IMG/VR virus record: IMGVR_UViG_3300033141_004135
DNA: 64,000 bases
Origin: an uncultured virus (IMG/VR IMGVR_UViG_3300033141_004135)
Lineage: Duplodnaviria; Heunggongvirae; Uroviricota; Caudoviricetes
Reading direction: 5' to 3' (one strand)
Positions 1 through 53,426 of the stretch are shown here, one piece after another. Positions within the stretch are counted from its first letter, which is position 1, and every line of letters begins with the position of its first letter. The notes beneath the pieces were generated by a model. That model was given only the letters and a program-made list of their open reading frames with translations. It did no database searches and was not told the origin of the DNA. Both the position numbers and the translations under genes were made by a program.

Positions 1-6
1 CATAAC

Positions 7-540
7 CGATCATCATGTGCTCGAAATTGATCATGTGATGATCAGGTCCGATCATTTTGATCGAAACTGATCAAATCCGATCGTTTTTGATCATTTTGAT
101 CGTTTTTGATCATTTTGATCAGGTCCGATCATTTTGATCATAACCGATCACCGTGTGATCAAAAATAATCACCGTGTGATCGTAAACGATCAATTTGATC
201 GAAATTGAACGAAATGATCGAAATTGAACAAAATGATCGATCACGATCTTTTTGATCAGACCCGATCATTTTGATCAGATTAAAACAATTTTGATCGATC
301 TCCTCCATTTTTATAGTTTTTGATAATTTTGTTTGAACCCGATCATTTTGATCAGATTCAAACAATTTTGATCTACATTAATCATTTTGATCATTTTTGA
401 AAAAAATGATCAAAACAATAAATAATAAGTTTTTTTTTTGATCAAAAACGATTAATGTAGATCCAAAAATTATTGTTTTTGATCACATTCATGACGATTG
501 ATAAACAAAATGATGATCAACCGCCATGAATGTGATCAAT
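7..540. repeat. Dense array of YGATCR hexamers, mostly 9-11 bp apart, with duplicated higher-order blocks
   Basis: About 27 GATC in nt 1-300 (8, 29, 40, 50, 59, 69, 79, 89, 98, 108, 117, 127, 136, 146, 157...) and about 10 more up to 537. Duplicated blocks at 40-62/117-139 and 261-296/338-373. Confidence 0.95.
365..538. repeat. Two inverted-repeat hairpins adjoining the GATC array
   Basis: GATCTACATTAATC (370-383) pairs with GATTAATGTAGATC (450-463); TGATCACATTCATG (480-493) pairs with CATGAATGTGATCA (525-538). Confidence 0.85.
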
Positions 541-574
541 ATTATTAAAAAAGAAAAAAAATGATTAAATTTGA

Positions 575-958
575 TTATTTTTGATTATTTTGTTTTTTTG
601 TAAAAGTTTTTATGATCTTTTTCTTAAATTCACTTGCCGAAAATGTTAAATATGTTGTCGATTTACCTTCATTTTTAAGCCGATATGCTAAATCCTCATC
701 GATATCGGCTATTTCTTTAAGGTAATTTTTTAAATCGCCTTTTACGTCAATACCCTTGCTTATTAACACCAAGGATATTAACTTTTTTTCACTGTCATTC
801 AATGGTTTAACCGTAGACGTTTTTTCTTTAGCACATTCAAGGATAAGTCGTTCTGGTAAACCAGATAGCTCATCCTTACTAAAGGTAAGAACAAGCTTAT
901 CCTTAAAACTAAATAATTCATTTGGGTTAATTTTTGGTGTATTTGGCTTTTTAGCCAT
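575..958 (-). CDS. Hypothetical basic protein (127 aa)
   Basis: Open frame with AGTGA-like RBS upstream and an oligo-T tract downstream on the minus strand; no family recognised. Confidence 0.7.
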   Translation of the reverse strand: MAKKPNTPKINPNELFSFKDKLVLTFSKDELSGLPERLILECAKEKTSTVKPLNDSEKKLISLVLISKGIDVKGDLKNYLKEIADIDEDLAYRLKNEGKSTTYLTFSASEFKKKIIKTFTKKQNNQK

Positions 959-1344
959 TTTGCATCACTTTTGTTTTAAAATTTGTTTTAGTTACTACTA
1001 TAATGCATGTTTGGGGATCGTTAAATTTTGCGGTTCCTACAGCCTCTACGTTCAAATTTGCGTTTTGCGAAAAAAACTGATCGATGGAAATTTCAGGTTT
1101 CATGTTTCGGTTAAACGTTTAAAAGATTGCGTTTTACACGGCTTTAAATTCAGACTTCACGCAAAATTCAAATTTTATGGTTAGAAAACGTCTACTATTT
1201 AAAATTTAAGACATATGGATATGGGTAGTTTGAGGCTTGAAAACACGCAAGAATAAGGTTTTTTGTAAAATAAAGGCTTAAGGCTTAAAAACATAAAAAA
1301 ATAAGAAAAAAAGGAAAAATAATATTAAAAAAAAGCTTATTTAG

Positions 1345-3183
1345 TTATTTCCCCAGATAATAACCGTTATCGCCTTCTAACACCGCAAATTCCTCAAAAC
1401 CGAATGGAAAAAGGGTTTTGATTAATTTACGTGTTAAAAAGTTTTTTAGATTGCCATCCTCAAGCCGTTCCCAGATCTTGTAAACGCAACTAATGAATTC
1501 TTTTGAATTTATTGTTTTGCTGGTGTTTTGCGTAAATTTACTCATGAATTCATCGCAATCGTTTTCTATGCTTATGTCCTCGCCTTTTGCGTTTCTCAAG
1601 GCTAAGGATAAGAAGTGCTTTAATGTGGTTCCTGTTTTTGTTTCTACCTTTACCGTAGTTTCACTGAAATTAATGATTAAACCGCAAATTAACCGATAGA
1701 CACTATCGGTTAATCTTTTCAGTTCTTTTCCCTTTTGGGCTTTAATCTTTAAAAGATTCAAGCCCATTCTTAAGGAAAACACTGAAAATACCCGTTTTTG
1801 CGTTATTTTTGCGTTTTTGCGTTTCATGGCGTTTATTTGCGTAATTCTTGTTTTTAAAGCGTTATCTACGCAATCAATGAATCTTAGAACCATGTTTTTA
1901 TTAGCTTTTACCAGATCATTGATTATGGCTACTAAATTGTTTTTTAACGTATTAGTGTTGTTTTTGCTAATGTGTACATCGGTAAACCCTTGAGAAATTA
2001 CAGAATTTAAGAAAAACTGAATTTGCTCTGCGTAATTGTTTTTTCGGTAAATTGTTTCGGTGTAAATTCCACGTGGCTTATATATTTGTTTAGCCTTCAT
2101 GAACTGCGGATATTCAATGTTCTTAACGTATTTATTGTATTTGCGTATTTTATTACCCACATTACTATAAACTAAGTTGTAGGTAAATTTTACATAAGGA
2201 TCTGCGGTTTTGGTCTTAGGTTTTGTCATGTGTTCTAACGTTTTAATGTGTTTGTCGTTTAATCTAATGTTATAACTGTATATTATGTAATTTGTTAACC
2301 GTGTGCGATTGTTTTTGTTTGTACCAAACCCATATAAACGTGTATATGGGTTTTGGTTAATGTAAGCCGTCCACTGCTTAAACCCTTTTATGTTTTTACG
2401 GCTATTAGCCTTTTTGTAAACATAAAAAGTGTTTAATCTATTGTATTTGATGATCTCATCGCCCAGATCCATCATAGCTTGATCTGTGGCTAAATCTAAC
2501 AACATTTTGTTAAAAAGAATAATGTTGTTAAATTTTTCCCCATCAAAACCAAGCTTTTTAACGATCTGGGTTAATTGGTTGTTTTCCTTGATGATCTGTG
2601 CGTTATATTGTTTAATTTGTTTTATCGTTTTTTCTACGTCAATTTTGGTTCTACGTTTATCTAATTTACTCATGTTGCGTAGATCTTCAATGTATTTAAC
2701 GTTTTTGACTAATTCCTCGAAACTATGCTTACAGTCCCAGTATTCAATGTTTTCTTGTTTGATCTGCGTGTTTAACGCCTTTTCGGTGTTTTTTGCGTAT
2801 TTTTGCTTGATCTGTGACCTCAATTTGTTTCTTAAGTGTATTTCCCCGGTGTTTTCTAAGATATAATCAACGTAATCAAGGAACTTAGCAAATTCTTTTT
2901 TGCTAAGCCGTTTCTTAGCTTTTTCTATTTCGCTGAAAACTGCGTTAAATTGCTCATTTTCAGTGATCTCAACGATTGAATGTTTTAAATGTTTGCTGTA
3001 AATGACTGTGTTTGAGAAATGCACCGTTTGACATTTTCCGCATAGATAATTGTCGTATCGCATGAACCGTGAATTTATTAGTTTTTCAATTGTTTTTCTA
3101 ACGTTTTTTTGCTGGAATTTGATGTATTTGCGTTTTAGTTTAGCTAGATTTGGTTTATTTGCGTTCAAGATTTGCCATTTCAC
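1345..3183 (-). CDS. Orphan Lys/Asn-rich basic protein (612 aa) with possible N-terminal Cys/His metal site
   Basis: Long ORF; CGKCQTVH...HLKH near the N-terminus; T-rich tract downstream; no catalytic motif recognised. Confidence 0.8.
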   Translation of the reverse strand: MKWQILNANKPNLAKLKRKYIKFQQKNVRKTIEKLINSRFMRYDNYLCGKCQTVHFSNTVIYSKHLKHSIVEITENEQFNAVFSEIEKAKKRLSKKEFAKFLDYVDYILENTGEIHLRNKLRSQIKQKYAKNTEKALNTQIKQENIEYWDCKHSFEELVKNVKYIEDLRNMSKLDKRRTKIDVEKTIKQIKQYNAQIIKENNQLTQIVKKLGFDGEKFNNIILFNKMLLDLATDQAMMDLGDEIIKYNRLNTFYVYKKANSRKNIKGFKQWTAYINQNPYTRLYGFGTNKNNRTRLTNYIIYSYNIRLNDKHIKTLEHMTKPKTKTADPYVKFTYNLVYSNVGNKIRKYNKYVKNIEYPQFMKAKQIYKPRGIYTETIYRKNNYAEQIQFFLNSVISQGFTDVHISKNNTNTLKNNLVAIINDLVKANKNMVLRFIDCVDNALKTRITQINAMKRKNAKITQKRVFSVFSLRMGLNLLKIKAQKGKELKRLTDSVYRLICGLIINFSETTVKVETKTGTTLKHFLSLALRNAKGEDISIENDCDEFMSKFTQNTSKTINSKEFISCVYKIWERLEDGNLKNFLTRKLIKTLFPFGFEEFAVLEGDNGYYLGK

Positions 3184-3231
3184 TTGTTTGTTTAAAAGAT
3201 TATGCGTTTCTAGGGCTAGGATTAGGGTTAA

Positions 3232-3392
3232 TTTTGACGAATCAAATGTCGTAGCACATCACCCATGAATGTTGCTGTGACGGTTCTATTAATGAACCGC
3301 ACACTTTTGTTAAACATGAGCCCGCAGGTCGTCTACGAGCCTCAATTCTAAAGAGAACTAACGCAAAAGCCGTTCTAACCTTAGAATTGATA
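3232..3392 (-). ncRNA. Putative structured 5' leader or ncRNA upstream of the 612-aa ORF
   Basis: Consecutive stems: 3342-3351/3381-3390 (10-bp perfect), 3320-3327/3333-3340 (complete only with G-U on the minus strand), 3281-3286/3294-3299, 3253-3260/3268-3276. AT-rich TATA-like segment at ~3425-3450. Confidence 0.45.
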
Positions 3393-3595
3393 AAACAATG
3401 AGAAAAAGGTGTAAACATACAATATATATATGTTTTTTAAATATTTAAATTAAATGCATGAAAATTAAGGGTTTAAGATTAAGGAAATATATGTTTTCTG
3501 TATATTCCTTGAAGCACGTTTATTATGTTGGGGATTTGGTTGATTAGATTAATGATAAGAAGTGGGTTCAAATTAGTGTAGGATTGGAAAATAAT

Positions 3596-3930
3596 AGGGG
3601 ATAGTGGCAGAGCTCCTCTCCCCGTTTTGCTAACCGGTCCCACGATTTAACGCACAGCCGTTTCTGAATCTCCCCACTGGTGCCGTTCTTAAAGCCTCTA
3701 CTCCGCAAATAAGATCTCACGGGAAAATTGAGCACGGGTCAAAAAAATTAAGGACCGCAAAGTCTGAATAAGAATGCGGCTATTTCTGTTGCGGGTTCTG
3801 AACCATGGGTCTGTAGGTCGGTGATTTGGGCGATGTGGTTAGATCGCCCCAAAGTTCTGTAGATCCAAGCTGATTAGCCGAAATTCGGGGCCCGCCGCGC
3901 ATGGCTCTGCCAGATCGCCAATTCCCCCTA
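3596..3930. other. GC-rich non-coding block bounded by short inverted repeats, between divergent transcription units
   Basis: TGGCAGAGC (3605-3613) / GCTCTGCCA (3904-3912); internal hairpin 3825-3853; C-run-rich left half and G-run-rich right half. Confidence 0.5.
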
Positions 3931-4072
3931 TAAGAATTCTTTTTTTTGGGTTCAGGAAGGCGAGTCATCCCCCACGATATCCACTCCCCCAACCATTAAT
4001 TCGACACCTCTCAAATATCTATATGCCGCAAATCCTTTGAACACACTCAAATCAGTCCGTTTTCTTACAAAC

Positions 4073-4160
4073 CACTTTATATAAAGTGCTCCCAATTCAT
4101 TACTTTAATTCTACTAATATTGTAAACGCCTATATATATTAATATTAATACCGTTTACAT
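4073..4160. promoter_or_regulatory. Palindromic operator-like sites upstream of the morphogenesis operon
   Basis: Perfect 16-bp palindrome CACTTTATATAAAGTG (4073-4088); inverted pair TGTAAACG (4121-4128) / CGTTTACA (4152-4159) around an AT palindrome. Confidence 0.5.
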
Positions 4161-4224
4161 TAATAATATCTTCAAACTAATAAATATCCACTTCTTATAT
4201 ATTATTTAAACCCCCTCAAAAATC

Positions 4225-4243
4225 GGGGAAAAGTTTATAAAAG
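4225..4243 (+). promoter_or_regulatory. Archaeal-type BRE+TATA promoter candidate
   Basis: GGGGAAAAG-TTTATAAA; spacing fits a leaderless start at ATG 4266 better than ATG 4248. Confidence 0.45.
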
Positions 4244-4247
4244 AAGA

Positions 4248-4691
4248 ATGACATTAACAACTCAAATGACGACCGATGAAAATAAAATGATCGAATCCTT
4301 CGACGAAACCATCCTAGTCAGGATCAACCCCAAAGAATCCACTCTCCCGATCGATACTGCCGCCGAATGGTCTAAAGGCTTCATGCTCGTGAACCTCCTC
4401 ATCAAAGAAATGGCAAAATCCAGATACGAAGAAGTCTACACCGACGGCAGCGGTTCCAAAAGAAAAAGAATCGTGATCCACCCCCAATTACTCGGCTACC
4501 TCCAAGAAAGAAGAAAAATGCTCGACCAAATCTACAAGATGTCGGGCGGAGAAGCCTACAACGAGGCTAAAAAAGAAGCGGTGAAAAAATTCGCCCACTT
4601 CTTATTCAAGATGCAAAACGACGACAAAATTAAAAAAAAATATGAAAAAGAAGTAAAAAAAATAATACAATCAGAGGTTAAAAATGAATGA
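4248..4691 (+). CDS. Putative terminase small subunit
   Basis: First gene of the operon, shortly upstream of TerL; helical, ~140 aa, with an 'IVIHP' segment typical of TerS; start may be 4266. Confidence 0.5.
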   Translation: MTLTTQMTTDENKMIESFDETILVRINPKESTLPIDTAAEWSKGFMLVNLLIKEMAKSRYEEVYTDGSGSKRKRIVIHPQLLGYLQERRKMLDQIYKMSGGEAYNEAKKEAVKKFAHFLFKMQNDDKIKKKYEKEVKKIIQSEVKNE

Positions 4692-4828
4692 AAAAGGTAA
4701 AAATCGAATTAGGAGGAGAAGAAATAGAAGATTTCAAGCAGTTCCTTTACGACAGCTTGGAAAATCCCCTCTACGATCCATATATAATAGAATACGTCCT
4801 AAAACAATTAGAAGAAGAAGAAGATTGA
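4688..4828 (+). CDS. Small acidic protein (46 aa, MKKVKIELGGEEIEDF...EEEED), not in the ORF track
   Basis: ATGA overlap with the upstream stop; codon style matches neighbouring genes. Confidence 0.65.
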   Translation: MKKVKIELGGEEIEDFKQFLYDSLENPLYDPYIIEYVLKQLEEEED

Positions 4829-4834
4829 ACCAAA

Positions 4835-5128
4835 ATGCCCGAAAATTCAGACAAAAAACCCCCGGAACAAAAATTAACAATCGTTTTCGATAAAAACCAC
4901 TACCCTTATATCGTTCTAGATCAGCGGTTTTACAGTCCCAAAAAAACCTTGTTCCCAGGAAATACCTTCTACTTCTACCACCTAGATAACGGCGAATCTT
5001 ATTTTAATCGTTTATATAAGGAAATGTTCGAAGCTCTCGAAAAAAACACGAATAACTTCGAAAATGACAACAACGACGACGATGATGACGACGATGATGA
5101 CAACCCAATGACAATAAGGTTCTTCTAA
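4835..5128 (+). CDS. Hypothetical protein with poly-Asp tract
   Basis: ORF tightly packed before terL. Confidence 0.7.
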   Translation: MPENSDKKPPEQKLTIVFDKNHYPYIVLDQRFYSPKKTLFPGNTFYFYHLDNGESYFNRLYKEMFEALEKNTNNFENDNNDDDDDDDDDNPMTIRFF

Positions 5129-5131
5129 TAA

Positions 5132-6871
5132 ATGGACTTGACAGAAAAATATCTGGAACGCCTCCCGCAAGATACTCTCAACAAGCTAAAACTAGCCAGT
5201 TATAGAGCCGTCGATCTAATAGAACTCTTCTTCCCCGATCCAAACGACTACTCCAAAAAAATAAAACTAGACCCCTTCCAAAAAGACTTCATAGATACAA
5301 TCCAATTCGGGTTCCCGGTAAGCAAGTTCAGCTTCTCGGAAGTAATCAATCCGCCTAGCGGCGTGATCGCCATATCAAGAAGACAAATAGGAAAAAGCAT
5401 CTGCTGCGGGTACGCCTCTGCTGCCCTAATGATCCTCGGTGCCACATCCGTCGGTAAACCCCCCTGTAAGAACGGGATCATAGCCGCTTCTCAAGAAGAA
5501 TCACAAATCCTCATCGAAAAAGTAAAACTTTGCTTCGACGAATCCGACTTCAACGAATTCGTCATAGGACGTCCAAAACTCGACTTCATAAGATTAATGA
5601 ACGGCTCGTTCACTAAATCACACGCCTGCTCGCACAAATCAATCAGAGGTGCCTCATACCACTACCTCCTAATAGATGAAGCCGCCATAATGGACGAATC
5701 CGTCTTGTTCTCTGCCGCAATCCCGACAGTCGAACACGGCGAAAGATGGATCGTCATAACAACACCTCAAGGCTCGAGAGGAAAAATGATACAAATGTTC
5801 TGTAAAGCCGTCGAATCACGCCCAATAACATGCACCAAGTGTGGAGCTGAATATTCGCAAACCAGCTTCATTGGAGCTAAATTCCCGGAAAAAAACGAGA
5901 TATGGAAGATGCCCAAGCTACCACCTTGTGAAATGTGCGGTTCCACTTCTTATAAATACGGAATCGGGCTGTGGGCAACACCCTGGTTCAACCCCTGGGA
6001 AATGGAAATAATCGACAACAAAAAACTGAAACAAACACTAGATTCCTTTTCCTGGTCTCCCTGGGCTAGACAAGAATACCTCGGCGAAATACTCGACGAA
6101 GCTGCCATGGTCATATTGGAAGAATGGATCGATAACTGCACCAACCAAAATCTAAGAAACGTGATGTCATTCGACGAAAACGTTCGATACATCTTAGGTC
6201 TCGACTACGGAAGACTACATGACGCTTCCAGCTTCTGCATAACACACTTCGATAAGAAAACCAAAAAAATAACCCTCGATTACATGAGGACAGTCTCCGG
6301 AGAATTCGACTATGAAACAGACTACGACAAGATCCACGAACACCTAGAACAAATAGTAAAATTCTATAAGCCCGTTCTAATAATCCCCGATGCCACTGGG
6401 TTAGGCTACAGCCAAGTAGAAAGGATGCAAAAAGATCTTAAGAAATGGGGTGTTAGATCCAAGATCTATACGAACGTTAAATCAAAAAAGGACAATCCGA
6501 GATTAGGATTCGTGATAAGTAAAACAGTCAAGCAAGAGCTAATATCAAACCTAATAACCAAGTTCTCAATGAACCCTCCCGTCTTACAAATACCTCCCAA
6601 AACCGAACCAGAAATAGGAGAACTAATAAAAGAACTCCTGAGGTTCGAATGCGAAGTAAAAGAAGGAGGCTACATTAAATACGGAACTCAAGATTATCAC
6701 GACGATAGAGTGATAGCTCTGGCTTTAAGCCTTTGGGGTCATAACACGAAAAGAGTGCCGGTCGGCAAGCCCAGAGGTGTGATATATGATGTAATCGGTA
6801 CTCAAAATCATTATGGAAGAAATATAACAAAATCAAACTCAAAATACAAGTTAATAGATGACATGTTTTAA
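5132..6871 (+). CDS. terL: Terminase large subunit
   Basis: Walker A SRRQIGKS, Walker B YLLIDEAA, motif III ITTPQG, RNase H-like nuclease motifs GLDYG / PDATG / HDDRVIALAL; CxxC...CxxC insertion. Confidence 0.95.
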   Translation: MDLTEKYLERLPQDTLNKLKLASYRAVDLIELFFPDPNDYSKKIKLDPFQKDFIDTIQFGFPVSKFSFSEVINPPSGVIAISRRQIGKSICCGYASAALMILGATSVGKPPCKNGIIAASQEESQILIEKVKLCFDESDFNEFVIGRPKLDFIRLMNGSFTKSHACSHKSIRGASYHYLLIDEAAIMDESVLFSAAIPTVEHGERWIVITTPQGSRGKMIQMFCKAVESRPITCTKCGAEYSQTSFIGAKFPEKNEIWKMPKLPPCEMCGSTSYKYGIGLWATPWFNPWEMEIIDNKKLKQTLDSFSWSPWARQEYLGEILDEAAMVILEEWIDNCTNQNLRNVMSFDENVRYILGLDYGRLHDASSFCITHFDKKTKKITLDYMRTVSGEFDYETDYDKIHEHLEQIVKFYKPVLIIPDATGLGYSQVERMQKDLKKWGVRSKIYTNVKSKKDNPRLGFVISKTVKQELISNLITKFSMNPPVLQIPPKTEPEIGELIKELLRFECEVKEGGYIKYGTQDYHDDRVIALALSLWGHNTKRVPVGKPRGVIYDVIGTQNHYGRNITKSNSKYKLIDDMF

Positions 6872-36210: not shown

Positions 36211-37479
36211 TCAACGATATAATGAAGTAAAAATTTCACTCCATTCTTTTAATTTTTTACTTCCTGGAAAATAAGAAGAGTAGTTATGCACCGAACCCTT
36301 CGTTTTGGTCTGCCAAGCTGGATCTAAAGCAAGCACCTTTATTTTCTCCTCAAAATCTATCCCGTATTTTCCTATGGATTCTAAAAAAATGTTATCTGGT
36401 GTTATTGGTCTTCTCATATCCCATCTCTTAAAAGTTTTTTCTACAGTATTAATTGTTTTGTATATCATCATTCTCCAATCCTTCTCTAGCTTTTCTAGTG
36501 AAAATTTTTTTTTGGCTTCTTTTCTAGCATTCTCACCTAAATATCTCCGTAGTTCTTCATCTCTTATCAATTCTCTGATATAATCTGCGAACTCATCAAT
36601 ATTATTTGCTATTAACCCGCTCTTCTTATTTATTATCATGTGTTTTTCCATATCATTGTTCAGAGTGATTATTGGAACTCCAGAAGCCATGGCCATTTGG
36701 AGAATTAAATCACAAGTACCGTAGTGATAAGGTGCTAGAGGATAAACGAATATATCGGTTTGTTGTAAGTAGAATTTAAGGAACTCAAAATGAACTCTTC
36801 CAGTGAATATCATCTTTCCAGATAAACCCATATTCTTTGCTTGTTTTTTGATCTCCTCTTGGTTGTCTCCTCCTACTACTCTTATTTCTTTTACTTCATC
36901 ATATATTTCTTTGATGATATTTAAGAATTTTGGATGGAGTTTAGCATAATCTACAGTACCTATATAGGTTAATATTATTCCATTACGATTTATTTTTTCA
37001 AGCTCTAAGAATTCGTCAATTCCAGCCGTTGACCAAATATCTGATAGATGATTCTTCTTATGTAGTTTTACCACTTCTTCTACATTATAACTTAGAGGAG
37101 TAGTAAAAACGAAGTAATCTGGATATAGTAAAATTTTTCTGGGATAAATGTTGGGTGGGATTGATCCAGAGTTATGTGCCCACATTATCAACCTACAATG
37201 AGGTAGTTCATTTCTTATTAAAAAATCGTACAATAATGGATGATTCCAAACATGCATTATTATAACGTCAAAGTTTTTTATCATCGTTAGTATTTGTCTA
37301 TGTGTTTTATTTAAGTGTACTGGAACGTTGTATTTTGATGATCTATCGTAGACATCATCTAAAGCATATCCTAGTATTACTATTTCTTGATGGAAAGCTT
37401 TATTAACACTTAAATAACCGAATATTGTATCTCCAACACCGCCTCCACAATGAGGAGTTATGTGTAAAACCTTATACAT
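36211..37479 (-). CDS. GT-B glycosyltransferase (GT4-like)
   Basis: VLHITPH.GGGVG; DIFVYP...AMASGVPII...GLI. Confidence 0.9.
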   Translation of the reverse strand: MYKVLHITPHCGGGVGDTIFGYLSVNKAFHQEIVILGYALDDVYDRSSKYNVPVHLNKTHRQILTMIKNFDVIIMHVWNHPLLYDFLIRNELPHCRLIMWAHNSGSIPPNIYPRKILLYPDYFVFTTPLSYNVEEVVKLHKKNHLSDIWSTAGIDEFLELEKINRNGIILTYIGTVDYAKLHPKFLNIIKEIYDEVKEIRVVGGDNQEEIKKQAKNMGLSGKMIFTGRVHFEFLKFYLQQTDIFVYPLAPYHYGTCDLILQMAMASGVPIITLNNDMEKHMIINKKSGLIANNIDEFADYIRELIRDEELRRYLGENARKEAKKKFSLEKLEKDWRMMIYKTINTVEKTFKRWDMRRPITPDNIFLESIGKYGIDFEEKIKVLALDPAWQTKTKGSVHNYSSYFPGSKKLKEWSEIFTSLYR

Positions 37480-38641
37480 ATAATATCCTCCCCCTAAATC
37501 CTATTTCATCTGCTCTTTTCTTTAACTTTTCGAAATGAGCAAAAGCTGTTATCAACAAGTAAGAATCATCCTCTGCTTCTCTTAATATTTCACTACCATG
37601 TATTTTAAACCCATCTATCGTATGTCTTTCTTGTTTTGACTTCGTATCATCTATTAAGGCTTTTATGTTGCACTCATTCAATCCTTTTTTCCATAAATAT
37701 AGAAACTCTCTTCCTATTCCCCAAACATAAATTGGTCTGTTTAATTTCTTTAAGAAGTTATTAATTTGTTCTCCTCTATTTAACGAGAGTATGCTCTGCG
37801 TTAATATATAATTCTTAGTTTTAAGCCTCAATTCTTTATATTTACAATCGGTATTTAGAAAGAAAATTGCGTTGATGTTAGGTAATATCATTTTTTCACT
37901 AACCATCGGAGTTTCATACTTGCTGAATCTCATCATTATGAACCCCTCATTTTCGAGCAGCATTTTTAAATGCTCAAAATCAAAATGCTGTACGTGTTCC
38001 CGTAATAAGAACCAATAATATTCGAAGAATTCTATTTCGCCATATCTTGATGCATCTGGAACACCAACACAAACTAAACCCCCATTCTTAAGAACTCTTT
38101 TTACTTCATGTATTCCTTTTTTTAGGTTAACGATATGTTCTAAAACTTGATCCATTATGATTACATCAAATGTCTCATCCTCAAAAGGAATTGAATATAC
38201 ATTTCCAACTTTTATGTTTTCATCCCCAATTTCATCAACATAATCCTTTATGATTTCGATCCCAAAAACATTTTCGAATCCCTTTTCTCTTAGGAATTTT
38301 ATGAATCCGCCTCTGGCACATCCTATATCTAATATTTTATGATCTTCTCTAATGTAATTTTTAATTAGATCATAAAATTGCTCGTATCTTAGATTACTGT
38401 TCTTATTATTACTTCCTGGTCTATCTCCTTCATCATCTTTTAAATCCAAGTTGAACTTCCCGTATTCCTCGTTGTAGTATTTCATGAGATCTTCTTCGTT
38501 TTCTATTTGGTTAAATATGTGACCACAATTAATGCAGTTTAGTATCTTGATATCCTCATATAGTGTAGAGCCGTCAAAACTTTTCGTTTTTAAATACATT
38601 AACTCTTCTAATCTTTCTGAATTACATATCGGACAGTTCAT
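37472..38641 (-). CDS. Class I SAM methyltransferase with N-terminal Zn site and C-terminal Rossmann-like domain (NDP-sugar C-methyltransferase architecture)
   Basis: CPIC...CINC; ILDIGCARG; FDVI...VLEH; EHVQHF; YVWGIG. Confidence 0.85.
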   Translation of the reverse strand: MNCPICNSERLEELMYLKTKSFDGSTLYEDIKILNCINCGHIFNQIENEEDLMKYYNEEYGKFNLDLKDDEGDRPGSNNKNSNLRYEQFYDLIKNYIREDHKILDIGCARGGFIKFLREKGFENVFGIEIIKDYVDEIGDENIKVGNVYSIPFEDETFDVIIMDQVLEHIVNLKKGIHEVKRVLKNGGLVCVGVPDASRYGEIEFFEYYWFLLREHVQHFDFEHLKMLLENEGFIMMRFSKYETPMVSEKMILPNINAIFFLNTDCKYKELRLKTKNYILTQSILSLNRGEQINNFLKKLNRPIYVWGIGREFLYLWKKGLNECNIKALIDDTKSKQERHTIDGFKIHGSEILREAEDDSYLLITAFAHFEKLKKRADEIGFRGRILYV

Positions 38642-39656
38642 ATATTTCTTTACACCTTTTTATTATTTCTTCTGATTTGTCATCCAAATCGACCGGCATC
38701 CCATGCGAAAGCTGGCTGCATTTGGAACAAATTGGATGAGTTTTTCTTAGTTTAAATAAAAACATTTTCCTATAAGAATTCATATTTTTTCCATTCCATA
38801 TTTCTTTAAGTTTTTCTTCATATACATCTCCTATTAGCATTTTTCTAGCCCAATCTAAGAAGCAAACGCTTACTGTACCGTTTGAATTTACGGACATTGA
38901 ATAGAAAACATATGGGCAAATCATTACCTCTTTTATTGGCTGGCCGTATATTCCGACCTCTTCGTTTTGTTTTACTTCTGAATCGAAATCGTACCAGCAG
39001 TTCATCACATGTTCTATGAATATTCCATCCGTTATATCGCCGAAAATTTCGAAGAACTTGGTTTTATCCTCCTCTGACAACAGATCTCCGTTGATTTTAA
39101 TTATCATTTCGCAATCTTTTCTATGATCATAGAAGTGCTCTATGTTTCTTACGAATTTATCAAAATTTATTTTATAACCGCTGAAATCACGGTATTGCTG
39201 TTCGTTCACACCTTCTATGGAGATGTTAATTCTGTCTAGTCCAGCTTCTATTATTTTAAGATTCAGATCTGGGTTTAGCATTGAGGCGTTCGTCGTAGTA
39301 TCTACTTTTTCACAGCACCCGCTGTTTTTGGCGTATTTTACCATTTTCGGGAAGCTAGGATTTAACAAAGGTTCACCATCTTTATATAATCTTAGAACCT
39401 TTATTGGCTTATCGAACTCCTTAATTTGATTTATTATTTTCTCATAAAGATCTAACTTCATGATTGTTGGAGTTCTTCCATATTTTTTCAGTAATTTTAA
39501 GTTTCCAGAGGGACAAAACTTACATCTAAAATTACAAGCATCACTTGGATCTACGAATATAACCCAAGGAGTGGATAAAGGTATGTTTTCTGCTAACGGT
39601 TCTCTATTTTCTAATTGTATTCTTGGTTTTATTTTTGCCTTCATCATGTTCACCAA
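38622..39656 (-). CDS. Radical SAM / SPASM-twitch protein
   Basis: CNFRCKFC, GEPLLNP, C-terminal C...G.V..C...C..C. Confidence 0.92.
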   Translation of the reverse strand: MVNMMKAKIKPRIQLENREPLAENIPLSTPWVIFVDPSDACNFRCKFCPSGNLKLLKKYGRTPTIMKLDLYEKIINQIKEFDKPIKVLRLYKDGEPLLNPSFPKMVKYAKNSGCCEKVDTTTNASMLNPDLNLKIIEAGLDRINISIEGVNEQQYRDFSGYKINFDKFVRNIEHFYDHRKDCEMIIKINGDLLSEEDKTKFFEIFGDITDGIFIEHVMNCWYDFDSEVKQNEEVGIYGQPIKEVMICPYVFYSMSVNSNGTVSVCFLDWARKMLIGDVYEEKLKEIWNGKNMNSYRKMFLFKLRKTHPICSKCSQLSHGMPVDLDDKSEEIIKRCKEIYELSDM

Positions 39657-40369
39657 TAACTATTTTTAACTTTACTAACATCTTTATTTTTTATCAAATC
39701 ATTGACTAAAGCATACGACAATGTTTTATTTTCTTTAGGAGTTTTTATTACGGTTTTTCTCCATCTCGTTCTAATTCTAATGTGCTCTTTATGGATCATT
39801 CCTATGTAGCACTCCTCATATTTTAGATTCCAAAATCTGAGCAATATTTCCGTTCCATATATCCCAACATATGGATAGGTTATTCTCTCATCGAATCCTC
39901 TCACTTCTAGCCAATATGGTTTGTATACTAACCATAAACCGTTTTTAATCCTATTTCCGTATTTTCCCCTTAAGATTAGTATTTTTGTTTTTATATGTTT
40001 TATGTTTTTCTTTAGCCAATTTTTACAAAATTTATCTAATCTCTTAGGATACTTATAATGTATGTTAAGATCAACCAAAAAGTTTTCTCTCATGTTAAAA
40101 ATGATTGCGTTTTCAATTTTTGACTCGTAAAAAGCTATTCCTCTTGTTTTAGGAACTGTTATCACCTTAAATCCGAATTCTTCTGCTAGTTCTTTAGTTC
40201 CATCATCTGATGAATAGTCTCCTACGGTCACATTTAAATGTGAAACTGATTCGAATGATTCTTTTATCCATTTTAAACCACAATATTTTATTGGATTCCA
40301 TAAATAATAATAATATCCTATAGTTTGTTCTAACCCATATTTTTTGATTAACTCATCTTTAGAGATGAT
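39650..40369 (-). CDS. GT-A (GT2-like) glycosyltransferase, paralog of 41630-42400; frame extends upstream of the GTG at 40231
   Basis: GDYSSDDGT; RGFDER; upstream in-frame IKKYG..TIGYYYYLWN...YCG...SFES matches the paralog's N-terminus. Confidence 0.75.
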   Translation of the reverse strand: MISKDELIKKYGLEQTIGYYYYLWNPIKYCGLKWIKESFESVSHLNVTVGDYSSDDGTKELAEEFGFKVITVPKTRGIAFYESKIENAIIFNMRENFLVDLNIHYKYPKRLDKFCKNWLKKNIKHIKTKILILRGKYGNRIKNGLWLVYKPYWLEVRGFDERITYPYVGIYGTEILLRFWNLKYEECYIGMIHKEHIRIRTRWRKTVIKTPKENKTLSYALVNDLIKNKDVSKVKNSYW

Positions 40370-41015
40370 TTTTCCATCCCCTAATTTTATGATGATAAAT
40401 CCAAAAATCCTTTATTACGAATAACCTCCCTCCTAAAGGCAATATTCTATTCCTAAAAGCAACCTCTCCGCCTTTCCACTTATGCTCTAATGAAAACATG
40501 TTTCCATCTTCCATTTTGAATTTTTCATAAAATGTTCTCGTAAAAGCAAATAAGAAACCGTTCAATTCCATTTTATCTGTTATTTCCACCATTCCTTTAC
40601 CCTTCTTCTCGGCTTTCTGTAGATAATTCACTTTCAGAACGCCGTTCGTCAAACACCCATAAACACCAACATCATTGTGTTCATGATTTTTTATTATCTC
40701 TAAGAAAACATTCACATCTTCATTGAAGATTAAATCGTCGTTTGCGATCACTATTATATCGCAATCGTCATTTACAGCCATTTTTACGCCTTCATTTAGA
40801 GGTATGGCAAGTCCATTTTGCTCTTTTATCTTAACGTATTGAGTGTTCCCAAAGTCTGGATAATCACATTCAAAATCCGAGCCGTTGTCAAAAATATAAA
40901 GTTTATATTCTTTTTTACAAGATTCGTTTAGGCTGACGATCATTTGGTTTAAAAGTGAAAAATCTTTTCTACTACATTTCTTACAAGCGTGGGTTACTAC
41001 TACGAAGCCTATCAT
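40359..41015 (-). CDS. GT2 glycosyltransferase
   Basis: IFDNGS, LNEGV, IANDD, IYHH. Confidence 0.85.
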   Translation of the reverse strand: MIGFVVVTHACKKCSRKDFSLLNQMIVSLNESCKKEYKLYIFDNGSDFECDYPDFGNTQYVKIKEQNGLAIPLNEGVKMAVNDDCDIIVIANDDLIFNEDVNVFLEIIKNHEHNDVGVYGCLTNGVLKVNYLQKAEKKGKGMVEITDKMELNGFLFAFTRTFYEKFKMEDGNMFSLEHKWKGGEVAFRNRILPLGGRLFVIKDFWIYHHKIRGWKNHL

Positions 41016-41625
41016 GACCCACTCTCTTAGCTATCTTTCTGAAATTGAATAATCTATATTTAAAATTGTTCTTCCAAGCAACATAATTAAACGAAACTTG
41101 ATCTCTAACGCATCCGTTTTTCAACTCATTCCACCATTCGTTTTCGATTTTGATCATTTTTGGTGTGATTCTTCTTATCAATACGGTTGTTTCCACTAAA
41201 CCGTTGTTCTTAGGATAATTCTCATTTTCGTATTTTTTTACTTGTTCTCTTATCCGTTGTGGATCTCCTTTTCTGATTTCAATACATCTTTTTGCTTCTT
41301 CATATATGCAGTTCCTTTTTGGATGTTTACTAACAACTAGATCTTCTTTAAAATTGAGATAAGGTGTTGGATCTTTGAGTAAAACGCAAGAACCGTCGAT
41401 CCAGATGCTCATCTTCGTATCCGTATAAAGATGTGAAAGAATCTTTATTTTTCTTGCCTGCCTTCTACTATCTGGTTCATCTACCATTGTTTTTATTATT
41501 TTCCACCTATCACTTTTAAAATCTTGATCTGTGTAGCATATGTATTTGAATCTTTTGTTGTCAAAAAATAACGGTTCTTTTAAGGAATCATATACCCCAA
41601 ATATTGCCGTATATATGGTTATCAG
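40981..41625 (-). CDS. TOD1/MUCI70 (DUF616)-like glycosyltransferase; frame extends upstream of ATG 41487
   Basis: Upstream in-frame IYTAIFGVYD.LKEP...YICYTD; SIWIDG, HPKRNCIYEEA, RDQVSFNY. Confidence 0.85.
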   Translation of the reverse strand: MITIYTAIFGVYDSLKEPLFFDNKRFKYICYTDQDFKSDRWKIIKTMVDEPDSRRQARKIKILSHLYTDTKMSIWIDGSCVLLKDPTPYLNFKEDLVVSKHPKRNCIYEEAKRCIEIRKGDPQRIREQVKKYENENYPKNNGLVETTVLIRRITPKMIKIENEWWNELKNGCVRDQVSFNYVAWKNNFKYRLFNFRKIAKRVGHDRLRSSNPRL

Positions 41626-41629
41626 TTGA

Positions 41630-42400
41630 TTACCAATAAGAATTCACCACATTTTTGACGTTTGTTTTGAAATCTTTCTTTAAGTTGGTTATCAAAATGT
41701 TTACTAGTTTTGTTCTTTCCATTTTAATCTCTTTAATGTAGGAATTGTTTAAAATTTTACTAAGCATTTCGAGTTTCATATGGTTGTGGTATTTATGAAC
41801 CATATTACTCTTATATACTAAAGGTGTTAATCTAAAAACTTGTTTCAACAAAGAGGAGCCATATTTCTGCGATCCAAAAGCATAAAACGTTCTCTCATCA
41901 TATCCTCTTGCTAATAACAAATAAGGCTTATAAAACACTATTGAAAAGCCGTATTTCTTCCTTTCTGTACTTCCATCACTAGATTGGAATTTATAACTAA
42001 TATGAATGTATTTTTTTGTTATGTCTGTTTTTTTTAATAACCTTTTAATATGATTGGTTAATCTTTTTTCGTATTCCACATGAATGTTTACCGGAATTAC
42101 AAAATTAGATTTAGATTCTTTTATGCATTTATTTCTTATTTTACTTTCTGGAAATACACAGTATTTGGGTTTCTCGACTTTTAGTGGTTTAAATCCGTAT
42201 TCTAATGCGATTTTTTCTGTTTTGTCGTTCGTATCACAATGTCCCACCAGTACTTCTGAACCTTGATTTGCCAAAGATTCAAATGATTTTCTTACCCTTT
42301 CTTCTCCGCAGTAATCAACAGCATTATATAAATAATAATAATAAGAAATGGTTGGTTTTTTTCCGTATTTTTTTACCAGATTCTGTTTAATTTTTTTCAT
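41630..42400 (-). CDS. GT-A-like glycosyltransferase, paralog of 39650-40369
   Basis: IRNKCIK, YKPY...RGYDER, MVHKYH, C-terminal NSYW. Confidence 0.7.
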   Translation of the reverse strand: MKKIKQNLVKKYGKKPTISYYYYLYNAVDYCGEERVRKSFESLANQGSEVLVGHCDTNDKTEKIALEYGFKPLKVEKPKYCVFPESKIRNKCIKESKSNFVIPVNIHVEYEKRLTNHIKRLLKKTDITKKYIHISYKFQSSDGSTERKKYGFSIVFYKPYLLLARGYDERTFYAFGSQKYGSSLLKQVFRLTPLVYKSNMVHKYHNHMKLEMLSKILNNSYIKEIKMERTKLVNILITNLKKDFKTNVKNVVNSYW

Positions 42401-43136
42401 TCAAAAGATCCTCAATGTATTTAATTGAATCCTCGTTTAGATAGTTTTTATAATCTCCTATTATAGCTACTCTCCTAAATGCTTTATTATCTCTTTCTCC
42501 CCTTTCTCTTCCAGTTTTCGATTTAAAGCTGTTTTTATTTAAAATACTCCTTATTTTTTCGGCGTTTGTTTTTAGGTTTAAGAATAAAGTTATATCTTTG
42601 AAGGTTTTCATTGGTGCGTTTATTAGATCTTCATAGTGAACCAACTTATAATTCGCATGAGAGAATCCATCATTATAAGAGAGCCAACTTTCCACCATTG
42701 TTTTCGTATAGGAACTGTTTAAAACGAAATAGTTTATGTATTCCTTATCTGTTGCTTTTTGGAGGTTTATACTCTTTCTTATTTTTAAGAATCTTTTTAA
42801 TCTAGGCGAAGTCGAAACAACTTGATCATATCTTATGTAGAGGATCATTGATATGATCACATCTTTAAGATCTCTAGTTATCGACAGCACATAGTTTTTT
42901 TTATCGTTTTGTTTAATCTGACTGCATATTGTTCTCGGATGTGTCCAATGCATTTTTATTACATTGTTCTTAGATTTATTCCTATTGATAAATTCTCTGA
43001 ATCTCTTTGATCGTATTTTATCTCCTTTTTCCCAAAAGATCCATTTAGTTTTCAATAAATCTGATAATAAATCGCACAACCATGTACTACCAGTTCTCAT
43101 TTGGGTAGTTACGAACACATTCATACTATTCAGCAC
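42387..43136 (-). CDS. PAPS-dependent sulfotransferase
   Basis: 5'-PSB-like TQMRTGSTWL, 3'-PB RDLKDVIIS, YEDL, FRR...GDYKNYL. Confidence 0.88.
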   Translation of the reverse strand: MLNSMNVFVTTQMRTGSTWLCDLLSDLLKTKWIFWEKGDKIRSKRFREFINRNKSKNNVIKMHWTHPRTICSQIKQNDKKNYVLSITRDLKDVIISMILYIRYDQVVSTSPRLKRFLKIRKSINLQKATDKEYINYFVLNSSYTKTMVESWLSYNDGFSHANYKLVHYEDLINAPMKTFKDITLFLNLKTNAEKIRSILNKNSFKSKTGRERGERDNKAFRRVAIIGDYKNYLNEDSIKYIEDLLNEKN

Positions 43137-50312: not shown

Positions 50313-50590
50313 AGTAATCCTCCTCTTTTTTCCTCTTTTTCAGATTTTGAACTAATACTTTTCTTCTTATTCATGGTTTCTATTTTGATCAAGTTCACAT
50401 CATCTCTTTCAATGAGAATATCAGTAGCACATGAATCGCATAAAAAAACTTCGCTTATTTTTATGTTTCTTTTCATAACAGCGTATTTTTTAACATTTTT
50501 TATGGCTTTACATACTTCGCATTCGTGAATTTTCAATTTGCTAGGATCAAACTTTGGATAATCCCTAATTCCCTTCTCGTTTAAATACAT
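50303..50590 (-). CDS. Zn-finger protein
   Basis: CEVC...LCDSC. Confidence 0.7.
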   Translation of the reverse strand: MYLNEKGIRDYPKFDPSKLKIHECEVCKAIKNVKKYAVMKRNIKISEVFLCDSCATDILIERDDVNLIKIETMNKKKSISSKSEKEEKRGGLLLI

Positions 50591-51453
50591 AATACACGTC
50601 CCACTTTTTCTTTATTAGGATTCATTATTCTCCCTACTTCGTCTATCTTATAGTTCATTACCACCTTCGTTCTAACGAACTTTCTACTATTAAGAAAACC
50701 GCAAACCTTTCTTTCTATTCTTCTAACTACTGTGTTTTTCATTCCGTCGAAAAACGGATTATTATTATCGCATGTTATCATCCACATGGTACCTCCTTCC
50801 GTTTGTTTTTCTAATAATTCTCTCATTTTCTTGTATTCTTCTTCTCCGAAATACTCACCCGTTCTATGATCCCTATCATATTGATGCTTGTTGTAATAAG
50901 GCGGATCTAAGAAAATAAAAGCATCATCTCTTGGTCTTATTTCTTTTAAGAAATCGGCGAAATCGTAATCATAAAAAATTACATCTTTAATTCTCTCATG
51001 GAATTTTTTAAATTTTCTGGCTGCTGTTCTAATACTTAAACTTGCGTTTTTCATCTTTGAAACATCGTGAGATAACGGGTTCCTATAAGTATTAGGGAGT
51101 GAATTAAACCCAAACCTAATCAAATATAAAAACATGTACGCTTTATCAACGATGCTCAGATCATCTTCATTGATTTTTTCCATGAATGTTCTATAAGCTA
51201 ACGACGATTCTAATGTAAACAAGCACCTCTTTTTTAATTCTTTCATTTTCTCCTCATCTTGTAGGCATAGCCAAAAACTAATCAGTTTTGAATCCAAGTC
51301 ATTCACAAACTCTTGTTCTACTTTCGGTTTATTAAGTAAGACAGTGCCGCTTCCAAAAAATGGTTCATAATAGTATTTATGAACTGGCATCATCGGTAAT
51401 AACCACTTTAATTCGTAAAATTTACCCCCCATCCAAGGATAGGGTCCATACAT
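50581..51453 (-). CDS. D12-class (Dam-like) DNA adenine methyltransferase
   Basis: PWMGGK, YEPFFGSG, VNDLD, FLDPPY. Confidence 0.92.
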   Translation of the reverse strand: MYGPYPWMGGKFYELKWLLPMMPVHKYYYEPFFGSGTVLLNKPKVEQEFVNDLDSKLISFWLCLQDEEKMKELKKRCLFTLESSLAYRTFMEKINEDDLSIVDKAYMFLYLIRFGFNSLPNTYRNPLSHDVSKMKNASLSIRTAARKFKKFHERIKDVIFYDYDFADFLKEIRPRDDAFIFLDPPYYNKHQYDRDHRTGEYFGEEEYKKMRELLEKQTEGGTMWMITCDNNNPFFDGMKNTVVRRIERKVCGFLNSRKFVRTKVVMNYKIDEVGRIMNPNKEKVGRVLCI

Positions 51454-51473
51454 TGGAATTTATCATTCACCTC

Positions 51474-52487
51474 TCATATTAGTGTAGTTTTCCCCATTTT
51501 TTCTTTTTTATCATAAATTGATCTTGCCAAATGATAAGCTAGCAATGGCGGAACCGCATTTCCTACCATTTTATATTGGTTTGTTTTAGATCCGAAGAAT
51601 ATGAAGTCATCTTCAAAGGATTGGATTCTAGCTGCTTCTCTTACCGTTATTTTTCGATATACCTTGTTATTATAAATTTTTGGATTTGATGACGATGTTA
51701 TTACTTGATTTGGTTCTGTCAATCTATTGAAGGGTTTATTACCTTTATTATTGAAACTTCTAGAATTCAAAACCTTATACTCTTCTATTTCTATTCTACT
51801 TCTTGGATGTAGATATCCATCTTTATATAATCCCGCAATTATAGTTTTCGATGGTTCTGATAGAATAAGAGGTTTGTGTATTCCTATTATTTTTTTATTA
51901 ATCTGGTCAGATATTGATCTCCATCTAGGAATCTCATGATTCTCAACGTTTTTGCTGTTATCGAACATTATATCGCCGATTGCTTCATACACGCTCACAT
52001 ATTCCTCTTTTTTTAGAATTTTCGGTGGAGGGCAGAAATCTCCGGTGAATACTCTCTTCCTTTTCTGCGGAACACCATAATCAGCCGCATTTAGTATGCT
52101 AACCACTGGATAATTTCCAAAAACTAAATGCTTTAATACTCCTTCGACATTTTCCATTATCCATTTTTTGGGGTTTATCACACTAATCCATTTTCTAAAT
52201 TCCTTTACCAACCCCATCCCTTTCTCTGGATCTGGATTGCTTTTGGCATAACTGAACTCTATACAAGGAGGACTTCCTATTACTATATCAACATCCTTAA
52301 AATCGTTCGGATCTAATTCTCTAACGTCAGCTAATATGAACTCAGAATTTGGATGATTATATTCATACGTTTTCTTTACTGCTTTATCATTGTCTATTCC
52401 ATACTTAACCTCGAATCCAGCTTTTAAGAAGCCAGTACTAAACCCCCCGCACCCGCAAAATAAATCCAACACTTTCTTAATATTCAT
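51474..52487 (-). CDS. DNA cytosine-C5 methyltransferase
   Basis: DLFCGCGG, GSPPC, MENV, YGVPQ.RKR, REAARIQSF, GNAVPP; GGAGG RBS before ATG 52487. Confidence 0.95.
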   Translation of the reverse strand: MNIKKVLDLFCGCGGFSTGFLKAGFEVKYGIDNDKAVKKTYEYNHPNSEFILADVRELDPNDFKDVDIVIGSPPCIEFSYAKSNPDPEKGMGLVKEFRKWISVINPKKWIMENVEGVLKHLVFGNYPVVSILNAADYGVPQKRKRVFTGDFCPPPKILKKEEYVSVYEAIGDIMFDNSKNVENHEIPRWRSISDQINKKIIGIHKPLILSEPSKTIIAGLYKDGYLHPRSRIEIEEYKVLNSRSFNNKGNKPFNRLTEPNQVITSSSNPKIYNNKVYRKITVREAARIQSFEDDFIFFGSKTNQYKMVGNAVPPLLAYHLARSIYDKKEKMGKTTLI

Positions 52488-52671
52488 AACCTCCTTCATC
52501 GAAGCAAGACATGCAAATTGGAACATCTTCGTCATTAAACATTTGACAATGAGCACATATGACTATTCCGCAGATTTGACATTCGTTTGTTTCGTCAACC
52601 CCAACATAAGAACCACAAAACTCGCATTTAACAACACTGCTTCTATTATTCATTTTACTCACCATACTCAC
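52477..52671 (-). CDS. Small multi-CxxC Zn-finger protein
   Basis: Four CxxC pairs. Confidence 0.65.
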   Translation of the reverse strand: MSMVSKMNNRSSVVKCEFCGSYVGVDETNECQICGIVICAHCQMFNDEDVPICMSCFDEGGYEY

Positions 52672-53426
52672 TATATATCAATAATTGTCGATTTGAACTC
52701 TTCTTTTTTCAAAAACTCGGTTCTGTATTTCTCTATTCTTTTTTTCGCTACTTCTACCCATTTCTCATCTAAATCTATCCCTATAAAATTTCTATTTAGT
52801 TTAACAGCAGAAGCTCCGACGCTTCCAGAGCCCATGAAAGGATCCAAAACCGTATCTCCGATGTTAGATGAGGTTTTAACAAACAAATCAGTTATTTTCA
52901 TCGGTTTCTCATTTAAATGTTCTGTCTCTTTATAATTACATCTACAAGGAGTGATCATGTAGTTTACCATCTCTTTCTGGGATAAAAAGTTTGGTATTCT
53001 ACATTCCCCCTTACTACCAACCCATACTGTTTCTATTGAGCTTCTCCAGTTATACTTCCTAAATGAAGTAGCGGGGTTTAACTTAACCCATGTGAACAAA
53101 GTTCTCATCATTACATCAGCATCATTTGTTATGAATTCCAACATCCAGAGTTTTTTATAATCGAAGAAAACATAAAACCATCCATTCTCTTTTAAAATTC
53201 TACAGCATTCGGAAACCCATTTATTCGTAAAATCGAAGTAATCATTTTCTGTTTTGAAGAAATCCCATTCGCCGAAATTCATCATTATATCTGAAGAACC
53301 TTTTATTTGAATATTACCTCTTTTGGATATGTTGTACGGTGGATCTGTTATTATTAGATCAACCGATTCATCATCCATTTTTTCTAATATTTCAAGTGAA
53401 TTTCCATTAATTAATTTAACATTCAT
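52671..53426 (-). CDS. Beta-class N4/N6 DNA methyltransferase
   Basis: ITDPPY precedes H..EKP and VLDPFMGSGS. Confidence 0.93.
   Translation of the reverse strand: MNVKLINGNSLEILEKMDDESVDLIITDPPYNISKRGNIQIKGSSDIMMNFGEWDFFKTENDYFDFTNKWVSECCRILKENGWFYVFFDYKKLWMLEFITNDADVMMRTLFTWVKLNPATSFRKYNWRSSIETVWVGSKGECRIPNFLSQKEMVNYMITPCRCNYKETEHLNEKPMKITDLFVKTSSNIGDTVLDPFMGSGSVGASAVKLNRNFIGIDLDEKWVEVAKKRIEKYRTEFLKKEEFKSTIIDI

Follow-up and report, generated by a model that had tools for sequence, protein, structure and literature searches.

A dense array of paired GATC sites in an uncultured member of the Caudoviricetes is most likely a docking lattice for a sequence-specific DNA-binding protein

What is served by a run of GATC sites crowded into the first 540 bp of a virus genome record, and by what kind of protein might it be read? 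The question is raised by one end of a stretch of DNA of 64,000 nucleotides (nt) from an uncultured sediment virus of the Caudoviricetes (IMG/VR record IMGVR_UViG_3300033141_004135), which is referred to here as the window. A preliminary description of this DNA had proposed that the GATC array is a cis-acting element read through adenine methylation, with a packaging start, an origin of replication and a genome end as candidate uses, or else a decoy for GATC-directed enzymes. Overall that interpretation is partly supported by the analysis reported here. The array is genuine, comparison with related viruses indicates that selection on the DNA itself has kept its sites, and it most likely serves as a lattice on which a sequence-specific DNA-binding protein docks.

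The figure of about 37 GATC sites in 540 bp was borne out by counting: nt 1–540 hold exactly 37, while 540-bp stretches in the rest of the window contain 2.53 on average and never more than 9, and at the background rate (Poisson, lambda 2.5) the probability of 37 or more sites is numerically 0. Nearly all sites had also been said to have the form YGATCR, and this is the case for 33 of the 37 (TGATCR for 24 of the 37), compared with 50 of the 296 sites outside the array (about 17%). Neighboring sites are separated by 9–11 bp for the sites at 40–157 and mostly by 19–21 bp elsewhere in the array. The basic unit can be described as a pair of GATC sites 9–10 bp apart with a T-tract (A/T) between them, recurring every 19–20 bp. 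All 18 of the GATC pairs with a spacing of 9–10 bp are found inside the array and none in the other 63.4 kb with its 296 GATC sites; likewise, the 13-mer GATCATTTTGATC is present in six copies in the array and is absent from the rest of the window. Decayed copies of the unit (AATC, TTGAAC and TTGATA) were recognized in the array by eye. There is a single array in the 64 kb, the next densest 540-bp stretch being the one with nine sites, and it does not belong to a dispersed family of the kind formed by homologous regions (hrs).

The arrangement of the sites is periodic. For the 27 sites of nt 1–300, the best period is 9.75 bp with a coherence of 0.72, a value reached by none of 10,000 random placements, and the T-tracts (n=9) fall on the same 9.75-bp period with a coherence of 0.97. 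Because the helical repeat of DNA, at 10.5 bp, is longer than this period, successive sites wind about the helix instead of lying on one face. Of the earlier claim that sites spaced at 9–11 bp share one face of the DNA, the spacing holds for the sites at 40–157 and the single face does not. The duplicated blocks that had been described were recovered with Tandem Repeats Finder (TRF), which reported a period of 19 (11.7 copies, 71% matches, nt 50–276), a period of 39 (3.7 copies, nt 250–393) and a period of 21 (nt 135–192). Further along, nested inverted repeats (366–388/445–467 and 470–507/511–548) enclose a tract at 393–440 with an A+T content of 88%; the content is 90% at 541–612 and 66% in the rest of the window. 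Treated as single-stranded DNA, nt 355–560 are predicted to form two long hairpins (–45.7 kcal/mol, z –7.8). Within nt 1–4500 there was no Rfam match at gathering score; no tRNA genes were found, and a scan for sigma-70 promoters gave no signal above shuffled sequences.

An array at the extreme start of a record calls for caution, as it could be an artefact of assembly or library construction, either a concatemer of Hi-C junctions made with DpnII/Sau3AI or the collapse of a contig end. The window start does cut the array, and because nt 1–12 are a repeat of nt 139–150 an assembler could well break there; another assembly also breaks within the array. Nevertheless, the DpnII/Sau3AI fill-in junction motif GATCGATC is found at only 2 of the 37 sites. 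Run X2 belongs to the same study but to a different sample; its Logan contigs include one that matches the window letter for letter from nt 154 onward, and a contig of 7,223 nt abuts the array on its left, ending on a segment that resembles nt 79–118 with further GATC-bearing letters to the left. Array-like contigs are also present in run X3, a true metagenome from an independent study that holds a relative 90–95% identical to the window virus, and the same repeat unit is found in two more distant viruses (G002 and G003, below) from other data sets. Thus, another assembly places the array away from any end, with no less than 7.2 kb on its left side; the array continues past nt 1, a point on which the preliminary description had been undecided, and it varies in detail and in unit content between strains and samples. 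The junction-motif count and the contigs of X2 and X3 exclude the Hi-C or ligation artefact that had been raised at the outset, and an artefact of any other kind is hardly credible.

The comparison with relatives covered 78 metagenome loci around relatives of the large terminase protein TerL and five whole IMG/VR records, G001 to G005, with TerL 43–46% identical to that of the window, which makes six genomes in all. Only two of the 78 loci, L076 (15) and L048 (12), exceed 6 GATC per 300 bp, and the viruses that they represent are identical or almost identical to those of G002 and G003. Among the whole records, G002 and G003 have one array each, G005 has a weak cluster only and G001 and G004 have none (Table 1), so that the search for the array in relatives, on which part of the earlier proposal had depended, succeeded in two of five. 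The 13-mer GATCATTTTGATC recurs exactly, twice, in G003, and as one-base variants in G002. Closely spaced GATC pairs fall within the array region in 4 of 4 cases in G002 and 7 of 8 in G003, and there are no such pairs in G001 and G004. Presence or absence of the array follows lineage, with terS and terL orthologous throughout. In both G002 and G003, the array lies 0.45–0.65 kb upstream of the terS-like gene, and in G002 the early genes diverge from it, i.e., it sits at the boundary of the late and early gene blocks, as does the weaker GATC cluster of G005; the G003 record stops about 0.2 kb past the array, so that no divergence of gene blocks is visible there.

Coding sequence provides a further view of the selection that acts on these sites. 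The array overlaps a small open reading frame (ORF) in G002 (170 aa) and G003 (145 aa), and the two ORFs are 29% identical (E 2e-4). They belong to a family of four, in which the number of GATC sites per gene is 17 in G002, 12 in G003, 2 in G001 and 0 in locus L055. In the small ORF of G002, isoleucine is encoded by ATC in 15 of 26 codons, compared with 84 of 1143 across the long ORFs of the genome. Outside the arrays, the relatives avoid GATC, with Markov observed/expected (O/E) ratios of 0.56–0.77 (0.66 in G002 and 0.77 in G003), whereas the window virus is neutral at 1.02. The recurrence of the unit at 43–46% TerL identity, inside an ORF, against codon usage and in genomes that avoid GATC, indicates that selection acting on the DNA maintains the array sites. 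To this extent the proposal of a cis-acting element stands, and the conserved repeat unit argues for a conserved reader protein. The small ORF family itself (G001, G002, G003 and L055) gave an AlphaFold2 (AF2) model with a pLDDT of 67 and no Foldseek match, and no DNA-binding domain was demonstrable in it.

Searches beyond these relatives returned little that resembles the array. With blastn the array had no phage match, and the one plasmid match, to two E. coli records, covered just 49 A+T-rich nt; megablast of nt 1–6000 against phages gave no match, and the exact double unit had none in viral contigs. An exact 47-nt pattern taken from the window was likewise absent from viral and metagenome contigs. 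A degenerate four-hexamer pattern matched at least 120 loci in viral contigs, and the 80 of these that were examined were mostly exact 9-nt tandem repeats and are uninformative on the array. Such exact 9-nt GATC-bearing tandem repeats are common in viral contigs (L175, L188, L173 and many of L112–L191) and swamp pattern searches for phased GATC; in the four that were read, L175 proved to be a collagen-like coding repeat, while L188 and L173 look like coding acidic repeats. The exception is the unrelated viral contig L154, where 20–22-bp repeats with two GATC sites each (3270–3400) form part of an ORF of 416 aa whose product has an HTH_36 domain. This ORF sits between a Toprim primase and a DnaB-like helicase, and the arrangement resembles an origin within an initiator gene.

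For the docking lattice, the use that we rank first, though tentatively, is that of an iteron-type replication origin or replication-control region. It is placed first because the anatomy combines 19–20-bp tandem units with A+T tracts and large inverted repeats, because the array comes and goes between lineages that all have orthologous terminase genes, and because of the early/late boundary position in G002 and G005. As expected of iterons, the direct repeats are in tandem, within about 17–22 bp (TRF period 19), and adjoin an A+T-rich region. In such an origin, an initiator, of viral or host provenance, would cover the phased sites, with bending or wrapping of the DNA as a result; this would help to melt the adjoining tracts of 88–90% A+T, and the large inverted repeats could extrude there. 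Because every site holds a GATC, occupancy of the sites could conceivably vary with adenine methylation, in the manner of RctB and oriCII in Vibrio cholerae. In oriCII, every 11-mer or 12-mer iteron contains GATC, and RctB does not bind unless the DNA is fully methylated (PMC2865523). Tandem short GATC-bearing sites next to an A+T-rich region are common to oriCII and the window array; oriCII has six 12-mers and a small number of 11-mers, with the gene for its initiator, rctB, alongside, whereas the window array has at least 37 sites arranged as hexamer pairs, has no recognisable initiator and belongs to a virus with a family B polymerase.

Two other origins can be compared with the array. Phased direct repeats together with an A+T tract are features that the array shares with origins of the lambda type. 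The lambda origin lies within the initiator gene O, the repeats of L154 are likewise within an ORF, and the arrays of G002 and G003 overlap one; however, the small ORF of G002 and G003 is the one without a demonstrable DNA-binding domain, and in the window there is no such ORF. At E. coli oriC, a dense run of GATC sites at about one-turn spacing is read by SeqA, and the window array is also a dense GATC run at about one-turn spacing, but no SeqA- or Dam-bearing host is indicated and the TGATCR pair context is not known as an oriC feature.

Several observations weigh against an origin. No recognisable initiator is encoded beside the array on its right, which is the flank contained in the window, the neighboring ORFs of 127 aa and 612 aa having no known family or fold, and within the window the recognisable replication genes are more than 40 kb from the array. 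GC skew tracks gene direction and provides no independent origin signal, and the A+T tracts and hairpins, being just 3' of a gene, could be mere terminators. Duplication of 19/39-bp units would by itself yield a period of 9.75 bp, so that the lattice may be a by-product. In G002 and G003, an array only 0.45–0.65 kb from terS suits packaging equally well, and near TerL in G001 and G004 there is no comparable array of any 6-mer.

Somewhat less probable than an origin, when taken together, are docking arrays of other kinds: a partition centromere (parC/tubC-like), a bank of regulatory operators where early and late genes meet, or an hr-like element that enhances transcription or replication or nucleates chromatin. 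A location at or near the boundary of transcription blocks and a unit content that varies between samples would suit them, and an uninterrupted series of roughly 10-bp repeats that extends for more than 100 bp resembles type II and type III centromeres. Against a centromere, no ParA, ParM, TubZ, ParR or ParB-like match was obtained in the ORFs scanned, a set that left out most plus-strand ORFs at about 8.3–36.2 kb and about 25 kb outside the window, and there is no sign of a plasmid-like lifestyle; against an hr-like site, the array occurs just once in 64 kb, whereas hrs are dispersed.

The packaging site that was among the uses proposed in the preliminary description is, after the origin, the single use ranked second, and we consider it unlikely. 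In this case the TGATCR hexamers would be recognition sites of the terminase, with cleavage gated by GATC methylation through the D12 enzyme, as in phage P1. P1 pac has seven copies of TGATCA/G in 161 bp inside pacA, requires Dam methylation, and has been proposed to involve bending (PMC10028697). The window virus encodes a D12 methylase and repeats the same hexamer in many copies, and the place of P1 pac in the gene that heads the packaging operon is matched by the G002 and G003 arrays, which lie in a small ORF upstream of terS-terL at the head of the late block (PMC10028697 for P1). The layouts differ, however. P1 pac has 4+3 hexamers around an IHF site and a cut site, within pacA, whereas the window array is at least five times larger, with at least 37 sites over more than 540 bp and no division into two clusters, is non-coding, and is found 3.7 kb from terS and not in the small-terminase gene. 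That distance, which confirms the position given earlier for the terminase operon (about 3.7 kb off, with starts of the terS-like ORF at 4248 and of TerL at 5132), is occupied by two unrelated genes on the opposite strand. In addition, G001, G004 and L055 have orthologous terS and terL and yet no array, and the D12 methylase scores under the cut-off for Dam.

The region beside terS provides a competing candidate. A non-coding element about 0.3 kb upstream of the terS-like gene has a AAGAATGCTT-type core in 10 of 10 aligned sequences and a GGCGAGTC-type box in 9 of 10, and is kept with or without the array; homologous elements are located at 8925–9010 in L076, 8990–9100 in L079 and 1495–1600 in L109. 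Its possible functions include those of a late promoter, of a signal for terminase and of a small RNA. We also tallied where the contigs of relatives start, using 60 contigs whose upstream end is a contig end (21 of 81 rows were left out by hand). The start falls 1,424–1,939 nt upstream of TerL (1.42–1.94 kb) in 19 of the 60, and six of the 60 share the first three bases GCT, all of them 1,497–2,852 nt upstream of TerL, which speaks for fixed ends there. Starts near the candidate terminus are those of L002, L004, L006, L048, L055 and L109, one of which resembles the C-rich motif at nt 3611. From these sequence comparisons, the terS-side region is a better candidate than the GATC array for a fixed terminus or terminase signal; the array is 2.7–3.6 kb beyond it, with two lineage-specific opposite-strand genes between. 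The idea that the array is the genome end or packaging start is weakened by the conserved terS-side element and the clustering of contig ends there, and also by the two intervening genes and by the internal position of the array in another assembly.

Methylation gating is possible under any of these readings. In its fullest form, the viral D12 enzyme would write N6-methyladenine on the lattice of TGATCR pairs, and an initiator or a terminase-associated protein would read the methylation state and so time replication or packaging, in a deep-branching family of tailed sediment viruses with a host that is possibly archaeal; this we regard as doubtful. The gene had been correctly recognized as D12-class (PF02086, E 5.7e-23), and FGSG and DPPY motifs are seen in the alignment of its product to E. 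coli Dam. With the Dam subfamily model TIGR00571, however, it scores 86.7 bits where the cut-off is 114.85, and with the E. coli Dam equivalog 44.5 where the cut-off is 441. Residues K9 and R124 of E. coli Dam, which we take to be its GATC contacts, face P and N in the D12 ORF, in a phmmer alignment at about 20% identity that is unreliable in the loop. Homologues that are 28–31% identical are encoded in G001, G003, G004 and G005, of which G001 and G004 are without the array; the G002 record does not include that region. The link between methylase and array that had been drawn is weakened both by the score under the Dam cut-off and by these homologues in array-less genomes. That GATC is neither avoided nor enriched in the window virus would suit self-protection at this sequence and is no proof of it.

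Much less probable is a decoy or sponge for a GATC-directed host restriction enzyme, methyl-directed nuclease or methylase: the relatives avoid GATC and yet two of them concentrate it in one place, but a decoy needs neither the YGATCR context nor a fixed A/T-linked pairing at 9–10 bp with its phase kept across diverged viruses, clustered cleavable sites would be a liability, and we know of no precedent for a GATC decoy array.

In the literature on clustered GATC sites (judged by title and abstract), on P1 pac and Dam, and on iterons, we found no array this large or regular that is common to diverged uncultured viruses and placed in a coding region. GATC-bearing iterons and the P1 hexamers are textbook knowledge. 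Cis-acting control DNA is almost unknown for uncultured viruses, and the array marks a functional site in a family that so far has only metagenomic members. If it is an origin or packaging signal read through adenine methylation, it could be tested in vitro and would provide a handle on the initiator or terminase partner; if it is an epigenetic switch, it would extend the principle of P1 pac and oriCII far beyond enterobacterial systems, on a larger wrapped array. Should it be a docking array only, it would still show cleanly how selection can favor a DNA motif inside a coding sequence, in opposition to codon usage, although the same genomes otherwise avoid that motif.

Table 1. Features at and around the GATC array of the window, the methylase gene, and GATC clusters in the five whole relatives
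Genome	Feature	Position	Strand	Remarks
Window	Dense part of array	1..300	.	27 GATC, mostly TGATCR/CGATCA; 19–20-bp units; starts before the window
Window	Looser part of array	301..545	.	10 GATC and decayed copies, nested inverted repeats, A+T tract; character changes from nt 355
Window	A+T spacer	541..612	.	90% A+T; between array and 3' end of 127-aa ORF
Window	127-aa ORF	575..958	-	No known family; transcribed towards array
Window	612-aa ORF	1345..3183	-	No known family; hypervariable cassette
Window	G/T-rich short repeats, then C-rich motif at ~3611	3200..3625	.	Repeats by eye; candidate physical genome end
Window	Conserved non-coding element	3885..3985	+	AAGAATGCTT-type core, T-run, GGCGAGTC-type box; ~0.3 kb upstream of terS-like gene
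Window	terS-like ORF, 147 aa	4248..4691	+	Directly upstream of TerL; named by position only, no family match
Window	TerL	5132..6871	+	PF03237 E 1.4e-6; phrog_2 E 9.7e-28
Window	D12-class N6-adenine DNA methyltransferase	50581..51453	-	PF02086 E 5.7e-23; intact
G002	GATC cluster			28 in 705 bp; YGATCR 20/28
G003	GATC cluster			19 in 620 bp; YGATCR 13/19
G005	Weak GATC cluster			At most 10 per 500 bp
G001, G004				At most 5 GATC per 500 bp

The two genes between the array and the terS region have few recognizable kin. The 127-aa ORF had no Pfam, PHROG or NCBIfam match and only one real homologue among 1.84 billion representatives, and its AF2 model (pLDDT 75.5) had no Foldseek match in the PDB at E<=0.001. 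For the 612-aa ORF, a contig with a 100% identical TerL carries a version that is 693 aa long and only 76% identical, and beyond this variant no homologue was found (none in the Atlas). A CxxC...HxxH pattern resembling a C2H2 zinc finger was noticed by eye near its N-terminus. The segment 1378–3454, which comprises this ORF and the DNA upstream of it, is inverted in the 90–95% identical relative of run X3, with joints at 1225/3454 and 1378/3486, and no flanking inverted repeat was found at the inversion boundaries. In G002, G001 and G005, the DNA a few kb upstream of terS encodes a family of ORFs of about 800 aa that lack any known domain (27–36% identical; L094 7382–9874, L090 3108–5567 and L105 12298–14649), and hhalign detected no kinship between it and the 612-aa ORF (probability 3.6%). 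The early ORFs beside the G002 array and the G005 cluster had no credible Pfam match, PF04973 remaining sub-threshold (19.1 vs 27.3 bits). All five whole relatives have the terS-like ORF at the corresponding place and with a conserved sequence.

Elsewhere the window encodes a portal protein, a family B polymerase, a PD-(D/E)XK exonuclease and an ERCC4-HhH nuclease, and a wHTH protein is encoded at 63422–63739. Three methyltransferase genes stand in a row on the minus strand (50581–53426), for D12 adenine, C5 cytosine and N6/N4 (CcrM-like) enzymes. Some 4-base palindromes are strongly avoided in nt 701–64000 of the window, with observed/expected counts of 1/32 for CGCG, 1/29 for GCGC and 10/53 for GGCC; ACGT is missing from G003 and G005, and CCGG from G001 and G003. 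A host-like or sugar-modifying block at 36211–43136 contains glycosyltransferases, an S-adenosylmethionine (SAM) methyltransferase, a radical SAM/SPASM enzyme and a sulfotransferase, and an M42 aminopeptidase gene is located apart from it (58804–59892). The virus is remote from all recorded phages: in a phage collection, TerL had one match (24% identity) and the polymerase nothing above about 24%, and in viral contigs neither the 612-aa ORF alone nor TerL alone had close relatives. TerL has 93 metagenomic relatives at E<=1e-10, whose bins include Saprospiraceae (64% identical) as well as Hadarchaeia and Thermoplasmata (32–33%), although the binning of viral contigs is unreliable. Some TerL relatives (P0016, P0062 and P0084) are about 960–975 aa long and contain intein and LAGLIDADG domains (PF14890, PF14528).

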